A stretch of DNA of 64,000 bases from a virus. The stretch is taken from IMG/VR virus record IMGVR_UViG_3300050821_002957, positions 207,192 to 271,191 of that record; one strand, written 5' to 3'. Positions 6,981 through 57,645 of this stretch are shown one piece after another (position 1 is the first letter of the stretch; each line of letters opens with the position of its first letter). The position numbers and the translations under genes are program-made. The notes beneath the pieces are model-generated. The model searched no databases. It worked only from the letters and a program-made list of their open reading frames with translations, and was not told the origin of the DNA.

Positions 6981-8063
6981 TTACTGCGCTGATGCCGTTT
7001 CTTCGGGAGCAGCTACCGAAACCACCTGATGACCATTCATTGCAGCTTCGCCGATAGCCGTCGCAGTGGATGCCAGATCCTTCTTGGATACGGTTTGCTT
7101 GACGGTTGCGCCGATGAAGGGCTTCCATTTGGTTTTGATCACGTCGGCACGCAACGCATCGAATGCGAGTAACATGGCACGACGAATGAAGATCGGACGA
7201 GTTTTGTCACGCTGGCCGGTTGCGAACGTCTCGACCAATTCCGACCGCAGAGCATCAACAGGATTGCCCTTGGGCAGCGAATTCTCCAACGGATTGAAGA
7301 AGGCTTCCATGAACAACATGCCCTTTTCACGGTCGATGTCGAACATCTTCAGGGCGGCGGCGGCGTAAATCGGAATGCGCTTCGTGCCCAGTTCGTCGTT
7401 CACGCTGCCGTGCGAGCGAAACAGAGTTGCGATGGTTTCGTAGACCGAATCGAAATACTCACGCTTGGTCTTGTACTCGTCGTTGATTTCGAGACGAGAC
7501 ATTGCCTTGTTGATGCTGCCCGGTTTGATGTTCTCTGGGAGCATGTAGTATTCGACCATCTCCCACTTGTGAGTGTCCACGTTTGCAAAATGGGCGAGGT
7601 TGGTCTTGGTGCGCTTTGCAACGCCCATGACGAGAAGATTGTCGATCAGAGCTTCGATGTTATCCACATGAATGCCGGTCAGCACTGTGGTTTCATAGCT
7701 CACTTCTGGATTGATCTCTGCTGCTTTCAGCACTGCGTTGCACCGATGTTGCAAATCGATGCCGTCTGCGGTGTCCGTAAACAACAGAGGTTCTCCAGTG
7801 TTGCGAAAATGTCCATTAAGCATCTGCCGTGCCATCGATTCGACCACCGACCAGTTGATCGGGCGATTCGTGACCTTGGGGTCCTTAAGGTTGAACTTCA
7901 GCAAAAATTCGGCAAGCTGCTTGTTTAGGCACACCGTGAACACTTTCACTTTGCTGTCTTTGCTGGATGCTTCGAGCGTCTTATTGAGAAGTGCCAGGGC
8001 TTTGCCTGACCCTTTCAACGTTTGGATCTGTTGATCGTCAATCGTTTGAAGATTGGTAGTCAT
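6981..8063 (-). CDS. ParB/Srx-fold protein with DGQHR-like motif (DGIDLQHR)
   Basis: 360 aa from ATG 8061-8063 (track ORF extends to GTG at 8192); motif ...EPLLFTDTADGIDLQHR resembles DGQHR/DndB-like ParB domain. Confidence 0.4.
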   Translation of the reverse strand: MTTNLQTIDDQQIQTLKGSGKALALLNKTLEASSKDSKVKVFTVCLNKQLAEFLLKFNLKDPKVTNRPINWSVVESMARQMLNGHFRNTGEPLLFTDTADGIDLQHRCNAVLKAAEINPEVSYETTVLTGIHVDNIEALIDNLLVMGVAKRTKTNLAHFANVDTHKWEMVEYYMLPENIKPGSINKAMSRLEINDEYKTKREYFDSVYETIATLFRSHGSVNDELGTKRIPIYAAAALKMFDIDREKGMLFMEAFFNPLENSLPKGNPVDALRSELVETFATGQRDKTRPIFIRRAMLLAFDALRADVIKTKWKPFIGATVKQTVSKKDLASTATAIGEAAMNGHQVVSVAAPEETASAQ

Positions 8064-8713
8064 AGAAGTCTTTCTTAGTTCTGAATTGAAAACGATTGGC
8101 TCAACACGCCGAGAATTTTTGACGTTTGTCCTTTCGTCTGCCTTCTCTTGTAGCAACGTTGATGCCAAACCTGTCTCACACACGAAAACCACGCTTTTTC
8201 AACATACGAAATTCTGTCTTCGCTGTTGTTTCACTTTTTGGATGCAAAATTTTCTGCAAAAGATGCACGAAACTTTGGTTGTGATGAAAAAACTGCAATT
8301 TTTGTATACCACCAGTGACGACATATGGACACTAGGTGACGGCCATTAGACATCATTGGCGCAGGTAACATATGTTAAATGGCGACACATGACCCATAAA
8401 GTAAAAGGGAGCAAAGTCTATGCGACTCGGCTCCCTGGACTACAAGCATTTGCGAACTATTCAATCAAGTATATAATGAGACCAGTGCTATTGCCTGTTG
8501 GTAATCATCCGCACACCCGGCAACTACCAAGTCCCCGTTGAAGTCGATGCGACGGACGTGAACATTTCTAGTTCTTTCGACCCGGCCCCGAAATGGTCAA
8601 CCGTGAGTTTCAGGTCTAGCACTCAACGTTCGCTCGTCACTAATGGCTGAGTACACTATTAATGTACCACCTGGAGTGATCCTTGTCAAACTTGGTACAT
8701 ACATATTTACGAG

Positions 8714-8751: not shown

Positions 8752-9030
8752 ATGATAAAAGTCACGAAAATCATTGAAACGTGCGGAGCCTGTCCTTCGC
8801 AGTGGAGTGGAAGAACTGACGACGACAAATACCTCTACATTCGTTATCGTTGGGGATTTTTACGGATCGAATTAGAGGGTGATACAATATTTGAAGGTAC
8901 GTTCGGCGACAGCCTTGATGGTGTCATGACCTTTGAAGAGCTTGTCGAGCATACCGCACAAGAAATCGATTTTTCTGAAGCAAAATGGGTCGCCAGCAGA
9001 GAGGAAGTCCATGAATTACACTACTTTTGA
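8752..9030 (+). CDS. hypothetical protein
   Basis: 92-aa ORF first in long plus-strand block. Confidence 0.45.
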   Translation: MIKVTKIIETCGACPSQWSGRTDDDKYLYIRYRWGFLRIELEGDTIFEGTFGDSLDGVMTFEELVEHTAQEIDFSEAKWVASREEVHELHYF

Positions 9031-9220
9031 AAAATTTTTGGAAGAAAAACGTCAAAAAGCTCCAAAAATGAAGAAAATAAACAAGTTTTACTGGTTTTTG
9101 GCAATCGGGACAGCGTTTTTTTGCATTCTCGTCCAGCTTTATGGCATCTATGCAGAAGCGCAGATGCAAGAAAACTACTGTCAAGGAAAAGCCTTCATCG
9201 AACGCCTCTATAGCGAATAA
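9011..9220 (+). CDS. small membrane protein
   Basis: 69 aa from ATG 9011 with GAGGAAG SD; one TM helix (FYWFLAIGTAFFCILVQLYGIY). Confidence 0.4.
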   Translation: MNYTTFEKFLEEKRQKAPKMKKINKFYWFLAIGTAFFCILVQLYGIYAEAQMQENYCQGKAFIERLYSE

Positions 9221-9225
9221 TTTTT

Positions 9226-9264
9226 GATACATCTATTGACTTCGGTCGGCATTTTTGCTAAGAT
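9226..9264 (+). promoter_or_regulatory. promoter: GATACATCT-A-TTGACT / 17 nt / extended -10 TGcTAAGAT
   Basis: read directly; nearly identical to promoter at 27647. Confidence 0.5.
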
Positions 9265-9272
9265 GGACTCAT

Positions 9273-9917
9273 ATGAAACGTGAGATTGCCTACGAAGGAA
9301 TGAAAACGCCGTGGGGTAAAGCGCAAAGTGCTCAGGAAGTCATCACTGGCATGTACTTCGTCACCACCGCTGGTCATGGCGGCATGAAGCTCAGTATCAA
9401 GTTGAACAAACTGATCCCGGACTACATGCGGAACCAGGGTGGATGGTACGAAGAGGACATCGACTGGTGCATTCCTTACGTAATTCTGGCAACTCACGAT
9501 CTCTTGACCAATCCCAAGTTTGGTGAAGACGTAGACAAGGCTGTTGCCCTACTTCGGAATTGGAAGCCGATGATGTACGAGCGCTTTTTCGATGTCGTCC
9601 TCAAACCCGGCGAGTCCATGAAGAAGGACGAAATGACATGGCAGTCGTACAACGCCGACAAGTTGCAAGTGCTCGCCGCCTGGGGTTCCGGCCAAAATGT
9701 TCGTCTTTCCCCGCCAGCATACGGTGACGGTCCTCTTGTCGAATACGTAGTCAAGCCGGGTTTCGTTCTCGTAGTCGCTGCTGTCGGCGGTCGCACCAAT
9801 CACATCACAGAACACGAAGAGGCATATTATCTTGTGCCCGACGCCGAATATCAGGCTCATGGTCCTCATGGCTTCATCGTCGATCCAACCCATCATCAAA
9901 AGGTGAGTCATGTTTGA
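9273..9917 (+). CDS. hypothetical protein (leaderless ATG 9273 or SD-preceded ATG 9300)
   Basis: ORF to 9917. Confidence 0.5.
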   Translation: MKREIAYEGMKTPWGKAQSAQEVITGMYFVTTAGHGGMKLSIKLNKLIPDYMRNQGGWYEEDIDWCIPYVILATHDLLTNPKFGEDVDKAVALLRNWKPMMYERFFDVVLKPGESMKKDEMTWQSYNADKLQVLAAWGSGQNVRLSPPAYGDGPLVEYVVKPGFVLVVAAVGGRTNHITEHEEAYYLVPDAEYQAHGPHGFIVDPTHHQKVSHV

Positions 9918-11768: not shown

Positions 11769-11944
11769 AAAGAGGCCGAAAACCAAAGTTCACACAAGAA
11801 GAGATTGATCACATGAAAGAACTCTATCACCGCAAAGAAGGAACTCGGTGGGGCATTGGTGACATCGCTCGTCTGTATCGCACTACGTCGGCGACAGTGA
11901 ACCGGGCTATCGATGGAAAATTGCCTGCGAAAGACGCTGTATGA
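11765..11944 (+). CDS. small HTH DNA-binding protein
   Basis: 59 aa MKRGRKPKFTQEEIDHMKELYHRKEGTRWGIGDIARLYRTTSATVNRAI: basic N-term + helix-turn-helix pattern. Confidence 0.45.
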   Translation: MKRGRKPKFTQEEIDHMKELYHRKEGTRWGIGDIARLYRTTSATVNRAIDGKLPAKDAV

Positions 11945-12558
11945 TTCATCAGGACCAGATTTATCACATGTTCGCCGACACTCGAATGTTTTTCGGCATT
12001 CCTAATTTTTGGAATGTCGTGACGAATCTTCCATTCATTGTCGTTGCGATTTACGGTCTATGTCGTCTCAAAAAAATCAATGACGTGAACGAGATGACAA
12101 ACAAATACGTCATCCTGATCGCAACTCTGATGATTGGCCTCGGCTCCAGCTATTATCATTGGAACCCAAATGACAACACTCTGCTGTGGGATCGTCTTCC
12201 AATGGCTATCGTCTTCATGGGAATTGTTGCCGCCACTCTGAAGAGATTTTATGGTAGTTTGGTCTGCCTCGGAATTGGAAGTGTCTTGTGGTGGCACTTT
12301 ACCGGCGAGCTTCTGCCGTATGTCATTGTCCAATTTGGAGCCTTGCTGTTAGTGACCATATTCGACTGGAAACGTCTGTGGGCCGTGATTATGATGTACG
12401 CCATAGCAAAGGTACATGAACACTTCGACCATCAAATCTATCAAGCCTTTCCGCTCAGTGGTCACTCGATGAAACATCTCTTCGCTGCGGCTGCGATCCT
12501 GACGTACATAAATTTGACGATGGTAGCGAGAAAATATGACGATCTACGACACGAGTAA
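11941..12558 (+). CDS. polytopic membrane protein, ceramidase-like (CREST/PAQR-type) family
   Basis: 5-6 TM helices; YYHWNPNDNTLLWDRLPM and HEHFDHQ His clusters. Confidence 0.4.
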   Translation: MIHQDQIYHMFADTRMFFGIPNFWNVVTNLPFIVVAIYGLCRLKKINDVNEMTNKYVILIATLMIGLGSSYYHWNPNDNTLLWDRLPMAIVFMGIVAATLKRFYGSLVCLGIGSVLWWHFTGELLPYVIVQFGALLLVTIFDWKRLWAVIMMYAIAKVHEHFDHQIYQAFPLSGHSMKHLFAAAAILTYINLTMVARKYDDLRHE

Positions 12559-24521: not shown

Positions 24522-24941
24522 TTAATTCTTCATCAGATGATCGTGAATCTTGGTAAAGACTTCCTGAACTTTTTTGACAAAGAACTCGTCCAGTGCAATG
24601 ATGTCGGCAGTTACGATCTGACCCTGCGTCGTAGACAGGAAATTGAAGAGGGCGGCTGCTGCGTCAAATCCTGCGGTTACCGGATCAAGAGCGACCGGAG
24701 CCAGAGATGCGACATTCAAATTTGGAATCACTTCTTTGATCGGCTCTCCTGCAATGACAGCAGCGGCTCCAGTGATGACTGCTTCATGCGGATCGACCAG
24801 GGTGTCAGTGAGAGCTTTCGCAACACCTTCTGGACTGATGTCGTGAACTCGGTCAGGAACACAGAGAGGCTCGGCGGCTTTTTCCAAAGTCTTCAGAACA
24901 TTGTCAGAAATCTTGGATGCTTGATTAGTTTGATATTTCAT
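24522..24941 (-). CDS. hypothetical protein
   Basis: 139-aa ORF. Confidence 0.45.
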   Translation of the reverse strand: MKYQTNQASKISDNVLKTLEKAAEPLCVPDRVHDISPEGVAKALTDTLVDPHEAVITGAAAVIAGEPIKEVIPNLNVASLAPVALDPVTAGFDAAAALFNFLSTTQGQIVTADIIALDEFFVKKVQEVFTKIHDHLMKN

Positions 24942-26339: not shown

Positions 26340-26575
26340 TCCCGCCAGTCATACTTGTCAACTTGTCCTAGTCCAGTCAGCCAGACAAGCACAAAGGCCG
26401 TCCAGTGCGAGAAACAGTAGGGACAAGAAAACAAACGAATTCCCTTGGTCCACTCCCGGAATTTCTCGAACATGACCGACCGAGTGACTGTGATTGTCAG
26501 GGCCATGTTCGCCAGCGATATCACCAGTAGAGCTTTGAGTCCCATTGTGTTATGCCGGAACGAAGACACCTTCAT
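26165..26575 (-). CDS. membrane protein
   Basis: 136 aa, 3-4 TM. Confidence 0.4.
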   Translation of the reverse strand: MKVSSFRHNTMGLKALLVISLANMALTITVTRSVMFEKFREWTKGIRLFSCPYCFSHWTAFVLVWLTGLGQVDKYDWRDWVVPGFHSQAVYHFDIIFFQHLYVFDPITYFIQCFAVIGLTAFLTYSWIAISELPTP

Positions 26576-27158
26576 TGGCGATGATGTTCTTCATGATTGC
26601 CCGGAGACGATCTGCCGCTGCGCCATACTTCTTTCCGAATGTGATGGCGGCTTGGCGAGATGATTCCCAGATTTCGATTTGCTTTTCGTTGACATGAGGA
26701 TCGAGGTTCCAGACATTGGACGGCTGGAAATATCCTCTTCCTCGCTCAAAGGCATTTTCGATCAGGTACATTTGATGCATACTGAAGACAGCTTTGAGGC
26801 GGCGTACCATATCGTCGGTTTCGATCATGTTGTTGTATTGTCCGTCCAGGCCGGAAAACTTGAACTTGTTTTCGAGAGTGACGACCGACATCAGACAGGC
26901 TCCCAGGCCACAGACTTCACAATATGGCTGGAGTTTCTTGGCGGTAGCCTTTGAGTCTTTCTTGTTTGCTTCGATGATCTTTTCGACTTCGGTGTCTTCG
27001 TACTTCCCGTCTTTGTACTTGGTTTTGGGAGAGTACATTTTGACGAAGGCTTTCCCGGTTCGGATGGCTTTATATCTTTTGATCGACTTCAGCACATCTT
27101 TGGCGACGGCGATTGCACGTTCTTGTTTTGGGGTCAAAGTTTCATTAGTAGTAGGCAT
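26550..27158 (-). CDS. hypothetical protein
   Basis: 202-aa ORF, first gene of long minus block. Confidence 0.5.
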   Translation of the reverse strand: MPTTNETLTPKQERAIAVAKDVLKSIKRYKAIRTGKAFVKMYSPKTKYKDGKYEDTEVEKIIEANKKDSKATAKKLQPYCEVCGLGACLMSVVTLENKFKFSGLDGQYNNMIETDDMVRRLKAVFSMHQMYLIENAFERGRGYFQPSNVWNLDPHVNEKQIEIWESSRQAAITFGKKYGAAADRLRAIMKNIIANEGVFVPA

Positions 27159-27220
27159 ATCGGGAAGGATACCTTAGTATTTTCTAGGTGTCAAGTTTTT
27201 GCGGCTGGCTCCGAACAAAA

Positions 27221-27455
27221 GGGACCCAATGAAGAAGGCAATGAAGAACTTTCCGATGGTTTTCATATTCTTGGAGTATAGCACTACCGGAGTCCCAAAG
27301 GCAGGGACCCTTTTCAGGATTTCTATAGGGTCAAATTTTTGGTCCGGGAAAATTTTGAGATTTTTGGGGGATGGGACCCTTTTCGGAAATTTTGCTGGGA
27401 CTTTTTTCTGGTACGTCCTCGGAAACGGTAGGGTGGGGTTGTATAACGCCTGCGG
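27221..27455. repeat. GGGACCC iterons (27221, 27304, 27373, degenerate 27448) interleaved with A/T tracts
   Basis: GGGACCCTTTTC exact 12-mer at 27304 and 27373. Confidence 0.45.
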
Positions 27456-27646
27456 ATGGGAACCCTAACCCGGAAAACACTGTGTATTCGACCCCGTACC
27501 CCATGTGTTCTCAAGCACTTGCGTCGATGCGGCTCGGCGAGTCTACATATATTCAGGGTGATGTTCGTCTCTACCCATCCTCATGAGCGTGGCTGCTAAC
27601 ACGACGAGCGACAAGGCCACGCTCTAAAAAATCCTCAAAAATTATT

Positions 27647-27686
27647 GATACATCTGTTGACATTGGATAGATGCATCTGCTAATCT
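27647..27686 (+). promoter_or_regulatory. promoter GATACATCT-G-TTGACA / 18 nt / extended -10 TGcTAATCT with 10-bp palindrome AGATGCATCT (27669-27678) in the spacer
   Basis: read directly. Confidence 0.5.
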
Positions 27687-27690
27687 AGTC

Positions 27691-28189
27691 ATGTAGTCAA
27701 GAGGTTCAAGACAAATAAACGAAAGGCGGCGAGATTGCAAAGCATGAGGAGGACATAGGCGCTCACTTGAGTATGCTGGTTTCAAATGATCGGCAACGAG
27801 AGCGACAAGAGCATTTGATGCAAGCCGTATGATGCTGGTGCGGCCCAAGCTGAAATCTAATCCGTGTTGCTCGGGTCATATGGCGAGACACGTCGGAAAG
27901 AATCCCAGCGTCATACACTCCAGCGACCAATGGTGTATGATTGGTTGATTGACGGATGATCGACGGCGAAGAGCGGACAAGTGCTGAGAGACGCCCTGAA
28001 TCAGTAGCCGTAGATGTCACGAGGATTGCACAGCTTTTCATCCGGCTTGTGCGACTGCGACGAAAGAACGAGAGACGATATGCGCTAACTTGAATAACAT
28101 ACCCTGCTCGGGTTTAAGAGCCTTAAAATTTACTCCTTTCCTGAGGCGCTTTGCAGAGAAACACTGCGGAGCGCCTTATGTGTTTTGGG
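27691..28189 (+). ncRNA. candidate ~490-nt non-coding transcript (promoter to terminator, begins AUG-UAG, no ORF >45 codons)
   Basis: inferred from promoter/terminator; GC-richer than flanks. Confidence 0.3.
28145..28189 (+). terminator. hairpin GGCGCT...AGCGCC followed by TTATGTGTTTT
   Basis: read directly. Confidence 0.4.
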
Positions 28190-28208
28190 CCTGCTATATA
28201 TTTGAAAC

Positions 28209-28433
28209 ATGCTGTACTGCGCCCGGTGTGACAGAAACTTTTTTGACGGCGAGGATATAACAATTCGCTCGGTGGCCGGAACTGAGCAAGCATATCATCA
28301 CGGCTGTCACGTTGACCTCTGCGACGAACTCAGAGAAGTTGCAAAGTCATTCGGCCCGACTTTTGACCAGGACGCCTACGTGCCTGTGATGTTTTTCTCC
28401 CGGACCTTTCGTGATTCGCAAATTGTTCACTAA
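28209..28433 (+). CDS. small Cys/His protein
   Basis: 74-aa ORF C..C....HHGCH..C. Confidence 0.35.
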   Translation: MLYCARCDRNFFDGEDITIRSVAGTEQAYHHGCHVDLCDELREVAKSFGPTFDQDAYVPVMFFSRTFRDSQIVH

Positions 28434-28569
28434 CGAACACACCACTACAGGTTGCGCTTTGTGATATAAAGTTGACAGGTTTCTTGTAAGTTGTTCATAA
28501 ATGCCTCAAAACAGTTGCCATATGATGTGTTATCAGCAATTGGTTAGAAGTTGTGATAAACTGGGTTTC

Positions 28570-29253
28570 ATGAAGAACGCCTATCGAATCGTCGGGACGG
28601 TCGTCTACATCACGGTCGAAACCACCGGCAAGACAAAATTGAAAAAAGAAACGTTGATCGATGTCGCCGACCTGGACATGCTTCTCCATCATCCTGTGAA
28701 AACTTGGTACGCTCATCTTGCAAAAGCTCCAGCCGGAAAATTTTATGTACTCGGCAAAGAATATTCTGCGGAGACACGAAGCTCGACAACACAAATGCTG
28801 CATCGTGTTCTCATGGGCGATCCCCGAAAAAAGTCTGGCAGAGCAATCGAGATTCATCACGTAGACAATGACGGCTTGAACAATCGGCACGAGAATATGG
28901 AGCGCAAATCACATCGGGGAAACATTCGAGCGCATTGGCCAGAAAGAAACTGGGTGCCTTACGATGAGTCGCTTGATCGAATTGTCGTCTTCAAAAAACT
29001 TGTCCAGATCGGCAAAGATATTCAGGCGACATATGAACTGACTCGCCAACAGCTATGGAAGATTCGCACAGGAAAAACATTGGAGTCAGCAGCGGCAAAG
29101 GCTTTTTGGTTCGCTGTGCTCGATGCATATCCTCAGTTGTTTCATAAAGAATGGAGAAGTGCGCCCTGGAAAGTCGGAGCGGCTGCAATCAAACAGTTTT
29201 GTGTTTCAAAAGAAAAAGGTGTGACGGCTGAAAAGTTGTCTGTTTCTTGGTAA
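28570..29253 (+). CDS. HNH homing endonuclease (HNH_3 type), freestanding
   Basis: LHRVLMG...IEIHHVDNDGLNNRHENM; ORF in track begins 28501. Confidence 0.7.
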   Translation: MKNAYRIVGTVVYITVETTGKTKLKKETLIDVADLDMLLHHPVKTWYAHLAKAPAGKFYVLGKEYSAETRSSTTQMLHRVLMGDPRKKSGRAIEIHHVDNDGLNNRHENMERKSHRGNIRAHWPERNWVPYDESLDRIVVFKKLVQIGKDIQATYELTRQQLWKIRTGKTLESAAAKAFWFAVLDAYPQLFHKEWRSAPWKVGAAAIKQFCVSKEKGVTAEKLSVSW

Positions 29254-42133: not shown

Positions 42134-42472
42134 TCAACCACAGAGAGGAACTTTATTCTCTTCCTTTTCAACAACTTGAATCCACTTTCTCAGGTAGTAA
42201 CGAGCGTCGTATTTTGTGCTCGTTTCTGCTTGAACAAATGGCGTTGGTTTGCTTTCAAGAATGAGTGGCATCGGCGTGGCTTTCAACATTGCGAGTTTGA
42301 AACGAACGTCGGGCCGTCTATCGAATCGCACGATCATTTCAGGAGCGTATTGAATCGCTGTACCGCCCGGTGTGGATCGTTGTTTAAGAATTTCGATTTT
42401 GAGCGAGTCGTTCATTCTGCTCCAGCATGTACATTTCAAAATACACTGACGACGTGACATCGTTCTCCGCAC
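42134..42472 (-). CDS. hypothetical protein
   Basis: 112-aa ORF. Confidence 0.35.
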   Translation of the reverse strand: MRRTMSRRQCILKCTCWSRMNDSLKIEILKQRSTPGGTAIQYAPEMIVRFDRRPDVRFKLAMLKATPMPLILESKPTPFVQAETSTKYDARYYLRKWIQVVEKEENKVPLCG

Positions 42473-42992
42473 ACGCCAATGCGAGTTTGAAAAACTTTTC
42501 GTCAGTCTTCATGTACTCTTGAAGTTCTGTGATTGCTTGTGCTGCACTCTTAAAAAGAATGCCAATGCCGCCAGCTTCACGCCATGCTTTGATGTTCGCT
42601 TCAAAGTCGTCAATGAGGATGTCGCCGGTCTTTGCGTACTGAGCTTTTTCTTTTTTGTGTGCGACGATCTTTACGAGATCCGGTGTCCACATCAACTCTG
42701 GAAGTTCATTGTCAAGCCAGATGCGTTTGTGCTCATCACTCTTTTCAATGTGCGAAGACGCAGCAGAAAGAATGCCGGGTGTTGCGACTCGGCTGTATCG
42801 CACAAAATTGAACAGTGCTCGTGCGCCATCGACCCACGGAAGATCCCGAAAGAAATATGGATGATCGTTCAACATCGCCCACTTTTCTTCATTGGACCAC
42901 TTCATATTGTGATCCCAAGCCTTGCCGGTTCGACGAGTATAATCACCATCAAATTCGCACAACACGCCATCCATATCAAACCAGACTATCAT
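42384..42992 (-). CDS. 5'(3')-deoxyribonucleotidase-like HAD phosphatase
   Basis: motif I FDMDGVLCEF at N-terminus, GDILIDD near residue 135. Confidence 0.6.
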   Translation of the reverse strand: MIVWFDMDGVLCEFDGDYTRRTGKAWDHNMKWSNEEKWAMLNDHPYFFRDLPWVDGARALFNFVRYSRVATPGILSAASSHIEKSDEHKRIWLDNELPELMWTPDLVKIVAHKKEKAQYAKTGDILIDDFEANIKAWREAGGIGILFKSAAQAITELQEYMKTDEKFFKLALACAENDVTSSVYFEMYMLEQNERLAQNRNS

Positions 42993-43115
42993 TTTTTATC
43001 CCCTCGGAAAGAATCTATCGACGACCCACGCCAATAGACCTAAATAAATCGACCACAAACCCCACAAAAATTCCATACGTTTATTATAACCTGGGAATGT
43101 GGTTTTGACAACTTT

Positions 43116-43172
43116 GGGGAGTTTTTTTGGGACTTAAGAGGCTGGAACGGAGAGTTTTTGGGAGTTAAGAGA
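43116..43172. repeat. imperfect 25-bp direct repeat x2 (GGGGAGTTTTTTTGGGACTTAAGAG / GGAGAGTTTTTGGGAGTTAAGAG)
   Basis: in divergent intergenic region 42993-43383. Confidence 0.4.
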
Positions 43173-43404
43173 GATAAGAAATTTCACTGGAGGCGGCGTA
43201 AGTTTTTGTTTCGATGTGAATCATTTGCCGCAGATTATCGAATTCTAACTTAATGAATTCTCGCTGACATTCCAACGAATCCAGGCATAGCTGTTGCGGG
43301 GTGTTAGTGTCCACGGCGATCTCCATTAAAGAAAGTTCTCTTGGATATATATAGCGTCCCGCATAACTGTCTTAATAACTGGTTTGTCTATGGTAAGATG
43401 GAGC

Positions 43405-44313: not shown

Positions 44314-44389
44314 TGGTAGACCCGGTAGGATTCGCACCTACGACCTCATCGATGTCAACGATGCGCTCTAACTACTGAGCTACGGGTCT
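44314..44389 (-). tRNA. tRNA-Val (anticodon GAC), CCA encoded
   Basis: manual cloverleaf: acceptor AGACCCG/CGGGTCT, D stem GCTC/GAGC, anticodon stem CATCG/CGATG loop TTGACAT, T stem GTAGG/CCTAC; D-loop lacks GG, T-loop TGCGAAT. Confidence 0.8.
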
Positions 44390-47352: not shown

Positions 47353-48108
47353 TCATGATCCATTGCAATTTTCACAGTTGACCGCTGGAATAGGATACTC
47401 GCCGCAGACGCACAAACGCTCTCTACGCTGTTCAAATGCTTCCTGAAGGTTCGGAGTGCCTGGAAGCGCCGCAAGCTCTTGGAACGCTTCTCTTACGTTT
47501 TTTATCACGTCCGAATTTTGTGTCCCTTCTTGAATGTGCTTGTGCAGCAGTTCGGTCGGCTGATAGTTGTGCAAAAAATGCCACAGTTCCATTGCACCCG
47601 ACATCAGAGCCAGATCACGATAGAAATGTGGAGCCTGCTTGAAACGGTTCGCCTTCTTGCTTCCCTTTTCGTCGGGATCGCCACCAAGCGCACGATAAGC
47701 TGTGTCGTAGTCGGCCATGACACCATCAAGATCGACATAGACAACACCAGTCGTTTTGGACCAGTCGATTTCTTTTAATTTACGGATGCAGCTTTCGGCG
47801 TCTTTGTAGATGATTGCGATTCCCCCGGCATTGATCCACTCAGAGCAATTCTTGGTGTTGTCGTCGATCAGCACATCACCCTTTTTGCAGAGCTTTTGTT
47901 TGTCCTGAGGATAGGCGACGACATGAACCTTCGGCCCTGTCATGTGCAGATGCAGGGCGACCCACTCGATTTTGTCATCGTAGCTGGTCTTTAGGTAATT
48001 CGATTTTGCGCTTAAGATTCTGATGTCTAGCATACCAGTATCTATCGTAGCATACATAGCACTGTCAGCACAACATACACCAATGAAGAAACGTGATGCC
48101 ATCCTCAA
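47353..48108 (-). CDS. circularly permuted deoxyribonucleotidase-like HAD paralog with C-terminal Zn finger
   Basis: N-half aligns to residues ~70-160 of 42384-42992 (KGDVLIDD...AGGIAIIY), C-half to residues ~1-70 (VYVDLDGVMADYD...FYRDL). Confidence 0.5.
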   Translation of the reverse strand: MRMASRFFIGVCCADSAMYATIDTGMLDIRILSAKSNYLKTSYDDKIEWVALHLHMTGPKVHVVAYPQDKQKLCKKGDVLIDDNTKNCSEWINAGGIAIIYKDAESCIRKLKEIDWSKTTGVVYVDLDGVMADYDTAYRALGGDPDEKGSKKANRFKQAPHFYRDLALMSGAMELWHFLHNYQPTELLHKHIQEGTQNSDVIKNVREAFQELAALPGTPNLQEAFEQRRERLCVCGEYPIPAVNCENCNGS

Positions 48109-52581: not shown

Positions 52582-54135
52582 CTACTTCAGAACGTGGAAA
52601 GGATTGTGGTGTGGTTGTTCGCCGCCCGGTTTCGGATGATTAATGCGAATGATACCGTCAGGATCTACCTTGTTTGCGAATTTACCAGCAGCATCGTTGG
52701 TTACGCCTTTGAGACGAAGACCCGAAACGACTCCGCTGTGTTCATCATGGCCGTGACCGTTGGTGTGCTTGATGCCCAATTGTTGATGACGGTCGAATGT
52801 ATTATCGTCTTCGTCACCGTTTGCAATTGGATAACGATGGCCGCTCGATACATCTTCTACGTGTGTCGGATGAGGAGTATCCTTACCACGGTGGTGAACC
52901 ATTGCGACGACGTGACCATTCTTCAATGCATGAACAACGTCTTTATCGTTGCTTTCGGAGTGGCCTGTACCAGTATGAGACAAACTCAAATGGTAATTTT
53001 CTGGTTTGTTCGGATTGTGAAGACGGCCCGGAATTTTGGTATAATCATAAAATTGCGAACCATGATGACGCTCGAAAAATTTCTTCGGCATCAAGTGTTC
53101 GTAAGGGATGTCAGACGTAACATTTAGACGCACACCGGATTGGTGAGGATTTGGCGTAACTTTGTCGATCTTTCCGCCATGCTCTTTAATGTGGGCTTGT
53201 GCTTCTTGTTTGGTGTTAAACTGGTGTTCGCCAACATGATGAGTCTTTACGTTCGCAGCTTCTTTTTCGTTGCGTGAAATTTCGTGGGACAACAAACGTG
53301 CGGCATGTTCAGGATGCTCATGGACGTAATGTGTACGCAGAACCTTTGCTCGTAATGCTGCTTCAGGATATTGACGATTTCCACCAGCAGTCAGGCCGAG
53401 ACAATTCTTGCGGCATTCACCAGACGCCTTCGGGCATAGATCGTGCTTGTATCCAGAGTGTGTGCTTGGAGCCATTGCGAGACCAACTGTCTTTACGCCA
53501 GCACCGCTGCTCTTACGAGTCTTGCCATTTTCACCCATCAAATTTGCTTGACCGTTCTTTGCGTGACCACCACGTTCGTGCATGAATTGACGGAAATGCT
53601 TTTGTGCTTCTTTGGCCTTTTGTTCGGTGACCTTTGGGTGTTCGCCTTCTGGAAATGCAGCATGGAAGCCTGCCTTCATATGCTGGAATGGATTGCCGCC
53701 TTGCTTGTCCAGCGCTTCACGACCCTTTGCCTGAATGTCTTTGACCGGAAATGCATCTTCCGTCATAGAACTTTTCTGCGATTTTCCTGGTTTGCCGGAA
53801 CGAGTCATGTTCATCCAGGGCGAAGACAGGTGATGCAAGAAGTTATGAACGATAGGATAGTCGAGGAGAGTCTTCTTGGTGCCTTTCTTTTCGATGAGTA
53901 TTTGCGGCTGTTCGTACAGAAATTCGATCTCTGCTTTGTCAAGTTCAAGAGTTTCATCAAGCAGGAGGGCAGCTTGGGTATCGAAAGATTCTACAACTTC
54001 TTTGGTTTCGATCTTTGCTTTGTACTCTTCTGCAAGCTCTTTGTCCATTTTGATGATGTCGGTCAAAAGGTTCTTACCAAAGAACTTGGCGTAATTTTTT
54101 TCGGTTAGGTCGGCCATTATTATCCCTCGACCCAT
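52582..54135 (-). CDS. large histidine-rich protein (alternative ATG 54117 with GAGGG SD)
   Basis: 517 aa; His-rich C-terminal half; GCTAAATAT box overlaps first ATG. Confidence 0.5.
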   Translation of the reverse strand: MGRGIIMADLTEKNYAKFFGKNLLTDIIKMDKELAEEYKAKIETKEVVESFDTQAALLLDETLELDKAEIEFLYEQPQILIEKKGTKKTLLDYPIVHNFLHHLSSPWMNMTRSGKPGKSQKSSMTEDAFPVKDIQAKGREALDKQGGNPFQHMKAGFHAAFPEGEHPKVTEQKAKEAQKHFRQFMHERGGHAKNGQANLMGENGKTRKSSGAGVKTVGLAMAPSTHSGYKHDLCPKASGECRKNCLGLTAGGNRQYPEAALRAKVLRTHYVHEHPEHAARLLSHEISRNEKEAANVKTHHVGEHQFNTKQEAQAHIKEHGGKIDKVTPNPHQSGVRLNVTSDIPYEHLMPKKFFERHHGSQFYDYTKIPGRLHNPNKPENYHLSLSHTGTGHSESNDKDVVHALKNGHVVAMVHHRGKDTPHPTHVEDVSSGHRYPIANGDEDDNTFDRHQQLGIKHTNGHGHDEHSGVVSGLRLKGVTNDAAGKFANKVDPDGIIRINHPKPGGEQPHHNPFHVLK

Positions 54136-56601: not shown

Positions 56602-57645
56602 TTAGTCGTCAGACGGAGGAGGCCGAAGCTCCCCAGTCTGTTGTCCTGCACCTTCTTCTTCGGCGTCTGCTTCTTCGGTCATAAAACCAGAAGCCTTCTT
56701 GCCATATCCACTTTCAAACGTCTTCGGTTTCTCGGACATCTTTCTGAGACGTTTAAGAACAATCGGATAGGACTGATCAAGACAGAAAGATGCAGCAACC
56801 AATTCACGCAAGTGGGCAATGCTGAAATCCTGTGTGTCCTTTGTCCAACGAGCCAAAGTTTCTTCGTTAAGACCTTCGGTCGTGCTGCCGTCTTCATTCT
56901 TTGTAGTCGTTGCAAATTTCAAGTAAGCCTTGCGAGCAACTGCCGAGGGCATTCCAACATAAATGCGTTCGTCAAAACGTGACGGTCTATTGACGATACG
57001 TGCGCCCAGTTTATCGGGGTAGTTTGTGGTAGCCAAGTATACTACATTGGCGATTTGGTTTTCACCGTCCAGCATCGAAAGGATGGCGTGCTCACCATGC
57101 TTGTCAATGATTTCGTCGATATCTTCCAAAACCACAATGATCGGCCTGTCTGGTTCCATCCCACGTACTCTCTGGAGCATATGAGACAGTAAATCTGGAT
57201 GACCGCACAGGAGAACAATACCATTCAAGCTGATCAATTCTTTCATGAGCAGGTTGATTGTTACGCTCTTTCCTGAACCCGGAGGACCCCACAGCAACAC
57301 ACCACGTTTATAGACCAGACCAAATTGATTGTAACGTTCCTGACTCTGCCAAAATTTCTTCATACCAGCAAGAACTTTTACGTTAGCAGTTTCGGGAAGC
57401 TCAACAATGTTGTCTGAGATGACGGTCTGTAACTGAAGGTACGGACCCATGTCGTCTTGATCAATTTTGTAAACACCTGGATGAAGATGCGGAATGGTTT
57501 TTGCAGCCGCACGAAACTTGCCGTTCGTGCCGACTTGCCATTGCGAATAGTCCATATCAGTGTCGGTTTTCTGACTGATTTTTGACATTCTTTTTGCTAT
57601 CGATGGTACGGGACTTTCGTCCTCGTCTTCGTCGTGATCATACAT
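56602..57645 (-). CDS. AAA+ ATPase (classical AAA clade)
   Basis: Walker A GPPGSGKS, Walker B IIVVLEDIDE, sensor/Arg finger NRPSRFDERIY; acidic tails. Confidence 0.8.
   Translation of the reverse strand: MYDHDEDEDESPVPSIAKRMSKISQKTDTDMDYSQWQVGTNGKFRAAAKTIPHLHPGVYKIDQDDMGPYLQLQTVISDNIVELPETANVKVLAGMKKFWQSQERYNQFGLVYKRGVLLWGPPGSGKSVTINLLMKELISLNGIVLLCGHPDLLSHMLQRVRGMEPDRPIIVVLEDIDEIIDKHGEHAILSMLDGENQIANVVYLATTNYPDKLGARIVNRPSRFDERIYVGMPSAVARKAYLKFATTTKNEDGSTTEGLNEETLARWTKDTQDFSIAHLRELVAASFCLDQSYPIVLKRLRKMSEKPKTFESGYGKKASGFMTEEADAEEEGAGQQTGELRPPPSDD

Follow-up and report, generated by a model that had tools for sequence, protein, structure and literature searches.

Genes and features at the locus

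We analyzed a 64-kb window (64,000 nucleotides; positions 207,192 to 271,191 of IMG/VR virus record IMGVR_UViG_3300050821_002957) that is part of a very large uncultivated phage of 405 kb, and we focused on a gene-free tract beginning at window position 27159, whose left part carries an array of GGGACCC-like motifs. Most genes in the window are small ORFans. The minus strand carries the genes between about 16 kb and 27,158, and the plus strand carries those between 28,209 and about 34 kb; the gap between the two blocks is therefore a true strand switch. Its left neighbor is a gene for a 202-amino-acid (202-aa) protein (26550-27158, minus strand), the first large gene of the leftward operon, and contigs as long as 405,631 bp from the Logan, Joint Genome Institute (JGI), and European Nucleotide Archive (ENA) assemblies also encode this protein. 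Its right neighbor is a 74-aa Cys/His-rich gene (28209-28433, plus strand).

An initial annotation of this DNA, made from the sequence alone, had described about 500 bp without a credible open reading frame (ORF). The noncoding character of that segment holds, and the tract is in fact longer: no reading frame between 27159 and 28208 has a positive coding score (the flanking genes score +33 to +37 bits), which extends the gene-free tract to about 1,050 bp, even though a 30-aa ORF within it is probably real. The gene caller of the source database called nothing in 27159-28500. Two plus-strand ORFs, at 27199-27468 and 27371-27586 (where GGGACCCTTTTC would read GTLF), were rejected, as they are broken by 1- and 10-nt indels in a relative. 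More generally, indels of 1, 2, 5, 8, 10, 18, and 24 nt relative to the related lineages described below rule out hidden genes.

A clustered and conserved motif array

The motif GGGACCC starts at 27221, 27304, and 27373, and these are its sole copies on both strands of the 64 kb. Their number equals chance expectation (3 observed versus 3.5 expected), but all of them fall within 158 bp (P ~ 1.8e-5). When the motif family is widened to include the variants seen in relatives (GGAGTCCC and GGGWACCC), five of the eight matches in the window lie inside the 502 bp of 27159-27660 (P ~ 1.6e-9). GGGNCCC, with any central base, is absent from the rest of the 64 kb, ruling out a genome-wide promoter or terminator motif. 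A sigma-54 or hairpin-promoter reading of the motif was also rejected, since inspection reveals no GG-N10-GC register and GGGACCC cannot form a hairpin.

Relatives of the locus were found among metagenome contigs. A gapped-pattern scan returned many chance matches, and BLAST identified one true orthologue, L048. Through the small gene beside the L048 gap we reached L101, a longer representative of that lineage (taken in reverse complement and referred to here as r101), and through the 74-aa gene we reached a third lineage, L104; the comparison set thus consists of the window, L048/L101, and L104. No relatives were recovered from IMG/VR by protein or DNA pattern or from 185k reference genomes, the INPHARED phages and PLSDB plasmids contain no nucleotide match to the window, and a further contig, L103, lacks the gap.

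Window positions 27335-28484 are about 70% identical to r101 over 1.2 kb, and r101 is 78% identical to L104. Nucleotide identity in the noncoding DNA is 70 to 84%, with perfect blocks of up to 42 nt, and in the left part 170 of 347 alignment columns are invariant in all three lineages. The adjacent 202-aa protein, in contrast, is only 56% identical, and positions 27160-27330 cannot be aligned by BLAST. This degree of noncoding conservation therefore indicates that the noncoding DNA is under purifying selection, although the conservation statistics are coarse because only three lineages are available and two of them are 78% identical.

Each lineage carries five or six sites, mostly in one orientation and mostly spaced 64 to 94 bp apart, all inside the orthologous tract; similar arrays in related phages, which the initial annotation had suggested looking for, thus exist in two lineages (L048/L101 and L104). 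In the window the sites start at 27221, 27289, 27304, 27373, and 27458 (three GGGACCC, one GGAGTCCC, and one GGGAACCC; spacings of 68, 15, 69, and 85 bp). In r101 they start at 652, 666, 750, 821, 1000, and 1086 (five GGGACCC and one GGGTACCC; spacings of 14, 84, 71, 179, and 86 bp), and in L104 at 285, 379, 443, 511, and 600 (three GGAGTCCC, one GAGACTC, and one GGGAACCC; spacings of 94, 64, 68, and 89 bp). The ratio of GGGACCC to GGAGTCCC is therefore 5:0 in r101, 0:3 in L104, and 3:1 in the window.

The first window site (27221-27227; GGGTCCCTTTTG on the minus strand) lies about 27 bp upstream of the -35 element of the leftward promoter P_left1. The second, a GGAGTCCC variant core at 27289-27296, lies in the spacer of the promoter of the small ORF, and the surrounding ACCGGAGTCCC (27286-27296) is identical to positions 375-385 of L104. 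The third, GGGACCCTTTTCAGGATTTC (27304-27323, plus strand; position weight matrix [PWM] score of 32.5 bits), abuts the -35 position of the same promoter and is orthologous to the r101 site at 750. The fourth, GGGACCCTTTTCGGAAATTT (27373-27392, plus strand; 35.6 bits), is orthologous to the r101 site at 1000 and the L104 site at 511; here the core has been replaced and the flank kept, as the window and r101 have GGGACCC and L104 has GGAGTCCC. The fifth, GGGAACCC preceded by GGAT (27458-27465, plus strand), is kept in all lineages, as GGGTACCC in r101. Sites were gained or lost elsewhere, for example through a 22-nt insertion in r101 that carries two GGGACCC copies. The sites thus share a near-palindromic G/C core (GGGACCC, GGAGTCCC, or GGGWACCC), and many are preceded by GGAT and flanked by T-rich, TTTCnGAAAT-like sequence; a fuller consensus is approximately GGAT-GGGACCC-TTTTC-r-GAAAT. 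Arrays of protein-binding sites show this combination of site turnover, retained site number and spacing, and lineage-specific cores.

Most of the elements listed in the initial annotation were located: besides the three GGGACCC copies, two exact copies of the 12-mer GGGACCCTTTTC are at 27304 and 27373, the degenerate site GGGAACCC is at 27458, and the half-sites GGGTC and GGTCC are at 27328 and 27341. The A/T tracts were likewise present, at 27333-27340, 27349-27365, and 27402-27407, but their phasing is not exceptional, as four other sites in the window score higher; the 10- to 11.5-bp periodicity of AA/TT in the tract is at the 98.7th percentile. These tracts are interleaved with G-runs over 27333-27409, a segment that includes the invariant TTTTGGTCCGGGAAAATTTT (27337-27356) and is probably bent DNA. 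Very strong phased A/T tracts also occur at 8966-9119, 8181-8300, and 51126, with the densest, 12 tracts in 150 bp, at 8970-9119. The claim that GGGAC-T-tract units recur at 43116-43172 did not survive inspection; the motif there is a different one, without GGGNCCC and without any PWM match of at least 10 bits. That area (43116-43173) contains two direct repeats of about 22 nt, GAGTTTTT(TT)GGGAsTTAAGAG (GAGTTTTTGGGAsTTAAGAG), located just after a TTGACA at 43104, and it has the second-highest 10- to 11.5-bp AA/TT periodicity in the window.

Long blocks between and beyond the sites are also conserved. The noncoding block GGTACGTCCTCGGaAACGGTAGGGTGGGGTTGTATAAC (27410-27448) is invariant, its part ACGGTAGGGTGGGGTT(T)GTATAAC being identical in all three lineages, and a further conserved block, GGCTCGGCGaGTCTACATATatTCAGGGTGA, is at 27532-27562. 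The invariant blocks have no copy elsewhere in the window, in IMG/VR, in the 185k genomes, or in the phage and plasmid collections.

Conserved folds were tested by comparing consensus folds with column-shuffled controls; a covariation count on the alifold-derived structure was circular and was dropped in favor of the column shuffles. The array tract has no conserved RNA fold on either strand (z of +0.7/+1.6 with two sequences and of -0.5/+0.5 with three), and single-sequence folds were not significant. At the gathering score, Rfam 15 returned nothing in the whole window but a tRNA-Val, and a search of 27000-28700 at E values up to 10 returned only noise (E of 0.8 to 3.8). The frame-breaking indels and the absence of a conserved RNA fold therefore suggest that the array is a DNA-level element.

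An inverted repeat with a 9-bp stem (GAGCGTGGC/GCCACGCTC) and a 22-nt loop containing the conserved CACGACGAGCG could form a hairpin or cruciform at 27585-27624 (DNA fold z of -4.3). It had been noted previously, at coordinates that are 2 nt off (27583-27622); its arms are at 27585-27593 and 27616-27624. In the relatives both arms have gained a base, and the pairing of these two (G/C; AGAGGCGT(G)/(C)ACGCCTCT) preserves the stem. A terminator was rejected because no T-run follows the hairpin on either strand: on the minus strand the T-run lies ahead of it, and on the plus strand the run that follows consists of A.

Predicted promoters around the array

Promoters were assigned as consensus matches. 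The predicted P_left1 (TTGACA-17-TATCCT; 27166-27194, minus strand) has the ATG of the 202-aa gene 7 nt after its -10 element, a leaderless design, and the same architecture is repeated in r101 (537, minus strand) and L104 (187, minus strand). A second strong leftward promoter of the relatives, P_left2, is located at 835 (minus strand) in r101 (TTGACA-17-TATCTT) and at 457 (minus strand) in L104 (TTGACA-17-TATCCT), and its spacer contains a motif core, gcGGGTCCCatccatga in r101 and aaGAGTCTCatccatga in L104. In the window P_left2 is destroyed, and an extended -10 element, TGcTATACT (27275-27283, minus strand), stands in its stead 8 nt before the ATG of the small ORF; this promoter has GGGACTCC in its spacer and GGGTCCC abutting its -35 position. 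A motif core thus lies within the core promoter of the small membrane-protein ORF in all three lineages, which is the strongest hint that the array may control transcription.

On the other side of the array, the predicted rightward promoter P_right, a strong sigma-70 match (27626-27686, plus strand), has two UP-like A-tracts, a -35 element TTGACA (27657-27662), and a -10 element TAATCT (27681-27686). It is accompanied by two boxes, TGATACATCT (27646-27655) and AGATGCATCT (27669-27678), the latter a perfect palindrome within the spacer. All of these elements, including both boxes, are kept in r101 and L104.

Sigma-70-like promoters form a family in the window, with the first T of TTGAC at 1169(-), 1188(+), 8714(+), 9236(+), 27194(-), 27657(+), 42137(-), 50870(-), 51192(-), and 63549(-). 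In about half of them an ATG lies 6 to 8 nt past the -10 element, and the first genes are therefore predicted to be leaderless. In many of them TTGAC(A/T) directly follows an A/T tract and a (T/A)GATACATCT box, and the near-palindromic (T/A)GATACATCT(A) box likewise lies beside or inside many of the promoters. The (T/A)GATACATCT box resembles a shared operator; TGATACATCTNTTGAC has seven matches at up to three mismatches, versus 2.2 expected.

A predicted noncoding transcript in the right half

The right half of the tract is a unit separate from the array. A noncoding transcript of about 490 nt (27691-28190, plus strand) is predicted to run from P_right to an intrinsic terminator (stem at 28142-28178 with a T-rich tail), which is conserved with a compensatory T-A to A-T change. 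The unit contains invariant blocks of 42, 20, 17, and 14 nt, the 42-mer being ACGAAAGGCGGCGAGATTGCAAAGCATGAGGAGGACATAGGC with an AGGAGG, and it has no coding frame, with indels of 1, 2, 3, 5, 8, 18, and 24 nt. Its three-way consensus fold on the plus strand has a z of -3.1, with none of 100 column shuffles scoring better (minus strand, z of -2.4), and 12 compensatory pairs were counted, versus 8.2 ± 2.7 in shuffles. It matches no Rfam 15 family, even at E values up to 10. These features suggest either a new structured noncoding RNA or a long regulatory leader with a terminator that would gate the 74-aa gene.

Neighboring genes

The small hydrophobic ORF of 30 aa (MKTIGKFFIAFFIGSLLFGASRKNLTPRKY; 27174-27266, minus strand) keeps its position in both relatives, where its counterparts are 34 aa (r101; 534-638 in L048/L102) and 32 aa (L104, approximately 185-282) and resemble each other in sequence. 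JGI called the 34-aa counterpart as a gene in L102. In the window the stop codon of the ORF overlaps the -35 element of P_left1, and the first GGGACCC lies inside it. Its coding score is negative (-4.4); it is probably a real gene, judging from its conservation only. The predicted product is single-pass and membrane-like. In the relatives the ORF is preceded by an AAGGGAC Shine-Dalgarno-like sequence and a 140- to 160-nt leader, whereas in the window it is leaderless.

The 202-aa protein belongs to a family with an invariant C-x2-C...GAC motif and has no known domain or fold; in particular, no winged-helix or Rep-like initiator fold was recognized. Its homologues elsewhere are not syntenic. 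An 83/84-aa gene is upstream of the homologue of this gene in L101/L048, downstream in L103, and absent from the window, which indicates that small genes are shuffled around the locus.

The 74-aa gene (C4, C7, H30, H31, and C33) has a -10-like TATATT 6 nt before its ATG. It is a real gene, as it shows no indels and mostly synonymous changes relative to r101 and has a homologue, P0012, that is 77% identical. Its AlphaFold2 model (predicted local distance difference test score of 51) is too unreliable for a fold search. It is followed by an HNH-like gene of 250 aa (28501-29253, plus strand) with weak matches to HNH_3 and phrog_59, which is not part of the element. The HNH-like gene is missing from r101, and L104 has an Endonuclease_7 gene at the same place (L104 1771-2205); these genes are therefore mobile insertions, the HNH-like one being specific to this phage, and the position after the 74-aa gene is a hot spot for free-standing endonucleases.

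Elsewhere in the window, the tRNA-Val (anticodon GAC; 44314-44389, minus strand; 69 bits) is the sole Rfam or ARAGORN match. The few genes recognizable amid the ORFans encode a ceramidase-like membrane protein, two NT5C-type 5'-nucleotidases, a DUF7007 protein, a GP88-family protein, and an AAA ATPase; the coordinates of these genes are 11941-12558, 42384-42992, 47353-48108, 9255-9917, 52582-54135, and 56602-57645.

Interpretation of the array

The region is functional, and the motif array is real. With moderate confidence, we interpret 27195-27645 as a conserved cis-acting, multisite control region of the operator type, located between divergent early promoters. The suggestion of a regulator-binding array in the initial annotation is supported in that the array is conserved in two other lineages, is noncoding, lacks an RNA fold, and has cores in or against promoters. 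From these properties we infer that a protein binds the array and that the output is transcriptional control. In the mechanism that we propose, 27195-27645 would act as double-stranded DNA, presenting five sites (five or six in relatives) to one sequence-specific DNA-binding protein between outward-firing early sigma-70 promoters, namely, P_left1, the small-ORF promoter, and P_right. The protein would occupy the sites cooperatively, possibly wrapping or looping about 250 to 450 bp. Since the leftward promoter has one site within its spacer and a second directly against its -35 element, binding would set the activity of this promoter for the small membrane-protein ORF and the 202-aa operon, and perhaps that of its neighbors too. 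P_right would be under separate control through its two AGAT-NN-ATCT boxes, which are also found on other early promoters of the phage. The 74-aa Cys/His protein is a candidate for the regulator that binds the array.

Several observations weigh against an operator-type control region. No helix-turn-helix or other recognizable DNA-binding domain was found in the adjacent and flanking proteins scanned, most sites are 130 to 470 bp from any promoter, and the promoters themselves are consensus matches only. A simple operator model does not account for the long invariant blocks that separate the sites, and the conserved hairpin with its compensated stem suggests some single-strand or cruciform function. 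The comparison also involves only three lineages, two of which are 78% identical. Finally, autoregulated iteron origins too typically have promoters within their repeats, as in the P1, F, and pSC101 replicons, where promoters are nested in the iterons and the rep genes are autoregulated, so that the promoter overlap observed here is also compatible with an origin.

A control region ranks first among the readings that we considered, and a replication origin resembling T4 oriE is its main rival. An origin of the T4 oriE or iteron kind, in which the repeats bind an initiator and the bent T-tract DNA and hairpin aid opening or priming, is unlikely on balance, and we similarly doubt that P_right supplies an activating or primer RNA in the form of the ~490-nt transcript. 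Repeats of about 20 bp that share an orientation, occur nowhere else in the 64 kb, and are kept in relatives would suit an origin, as would the strand switch, the conserved hairpin with its conserved loop, and an early sigma-70 promoter that would make a conserved untranslated RNA beside the repeats. However, the initial annotation had seen a classical origin signature of iterons plus an A/T-rich unwinding element, and these features do not hold up: 27300-27480 is 49% GC (window mean of about 46%) and is not a minimum of duplex stability; the best 80- and 150-bp windows in 27160-27660 reach only the 91st to 92nd percentile of instability, with the promoter A-tract at about 27620-27700 alone ranking among the least stable sequences. 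The spacing is irregular (64 to 94 bp), neither even nor helically phased as in iterons; no replication gene was recognized among the window proteins scanned; and the adjacent 202-aa protein lacks an initiator-like fold. No DnaA box-like sequence is apparent, there being no TTATCCACA-like 9-mer (at up to two mismatches) in 27100-28300, although the DnaA box of the host may differ. GC skew, proposed previously as a check, places the cumulative G-C minimum at 24,600, about 2.6 kb left of the gap. The minus-strand genes extend across 25.0-27.16 kb, to the right of this minimum, so that a 2.5-kb block is skewed opposite to transcription. Moreover, P_right fires away from the repeats and its RNA would stop at the terminator, unlike an R-loop primer that enters an origin. 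Iteron origins are defined by even, phased repeats, an A/T-rich unwinding element, host initiator sites, and Rep (PMC4980987), features not seen here. The features shared with T4 oriE, namely, syntenically conserved repeats, an early-mode promoter, and a strand switch, are circumstantial even in T4, where the role of the repeats is unproven (PMC3016281). An origin is therefore possible but unsupported.

Two other readings trail. The repeats might act at the RNA level, in the 5' leader of the small-ORF mRNA or as an unstructured, GGA-rich protein-sponge RNA, as sites S1-S3 would be transcribed from the P_left2 of the relatives, the resulting 140- to 160-nt leader of r101 and L104 includes two or three sites, the 27300-27480 segment is strand asymmetric (GC skew of +0.25 and AT skew of -0.16), and the hairpin stem is compensated. 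We consider this improbable, given that neither strand has a conserved fold or an Rfam match, that no promoter was found to transcribe 27300-27640 on the plus strand, and that the window retains the sites upstream of the small-ORF promoter even though its P_left2 is destroyed and its small ORF has no leader. Slightly less probable still is a centromere-like partition or packaging (pac/cos-type) site, at which a ParB/ParR-like protein or a small terminase subunit would bind the bent DNA. A unique, locus-specific array of five or six sites on T-tract DNA with lineage-specific cores would be in keeping with such a site, and arrays with covarying specificity are known for parS/parC and lambda cosB. 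No ParA/ParB, ParM/ParR, or terminase gene was found, however, among the scanned proteins encoded up to about 5 kb to the left or right, and the region lies among early, sigma-70-driven ORFan genes and overlaps their promoters. The ParB/DGQHR-like protein that had been proposed at 6981-8063 is a 403-aa protein at 6981-8192, 19 kb away, that has no ParB-family match and matches only phrog_5931 (function unknown).

A more inclusive idea is that the whole 1-kb module (the array, invariant blocks, hairpin, and P_right with its ~490-nt RNA) forms a T4 oriE-like origin of the 405-kb phage or that the ~490-nt RNA alone belongs to an undescribed class of large structured phage RNAs and acts in concert with the array; we regard this as speculative and rather unlikely.

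Huge uncultivated phage genomes are mostly unannotated, and their cis-acting signals are nearly unknown. The locus offers a concrete, testable map that combines a promoter grammar (sigma-70 consensus, predicted leaderless first genes, and AGAT-NN-ATCT boxes), a conserved multisite, putatively protein-binding region under stronger constraint than the neighboring genes, and a conserved, predicted noncoding RNA of about 490 nt. If the array is an operator, it would identify a regulator and its sites as a lineage-specific pair and open a way into early-gene control; if it is an origin, it would be among the first defined for this phage size class.

Comparison with known systems

The iteron origins of RK2 (oriV), P1 (oriR), and lambda (ori) (PMC4980987) resemble the array in having sites of about 20 bp in one orientation, an embedded promoter, and lineage-specific sequence. 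They differ from it in their A/T-rich unwinding element with 13-mers, their DnaA boxes, their helically phased spacing, and the winged-helix Rep gene alongside. T4 oriE (repEA/repEB; PMC3016281) is closer in setting and offers the nearest positive precedent, since it too joins direct repeats in regions syntenic among relatives with dependence on an early-mode, sigma-70-type promoter and likewise occupies a strand switch in the genome of a large phage of the lytic type. The T4 repeats, however, are 12 nt long and evenly spaced, whereas those described here are about 20 bp and irregular; no homology to the T4 region was found, and an origin function is unproven in both cases.

The predicted ~490-nt transcript is reminiscent of the large phage RNAs of Rfam, GOLLD and ROOL, in that it is several hundred nucleotides long, is phage borne, and has conserved blocks and a consensus fold better than those of shuffled alignments. 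Unlike them, it has no Rfam 15 match, is known from only three lineages, and may be a leader with an attenuator-type terminator.

For the array itself, comparison with the operators of Mu (O1-O3, between Pe and Pc) and lambda (OL/OR) is instructive. The sites described here extend over 250 to 450 bp at 64- to 94-bp intervals instead of clustering on promoters, they are separated by long, unique, invariant stretches and a conserved hairpin, no recognizable repressor gene is beside the array, and P_right has different operator-like boxes of its own. In common with the Mu and lambda operators, the array occupies a noncoding region between divergent early promoters and consists of several copies of a short, T-tract-containing site, probably on bent DNA, that overlap core promoter elements, and its cores differ between related phages, as they do in heteroimmune phages.

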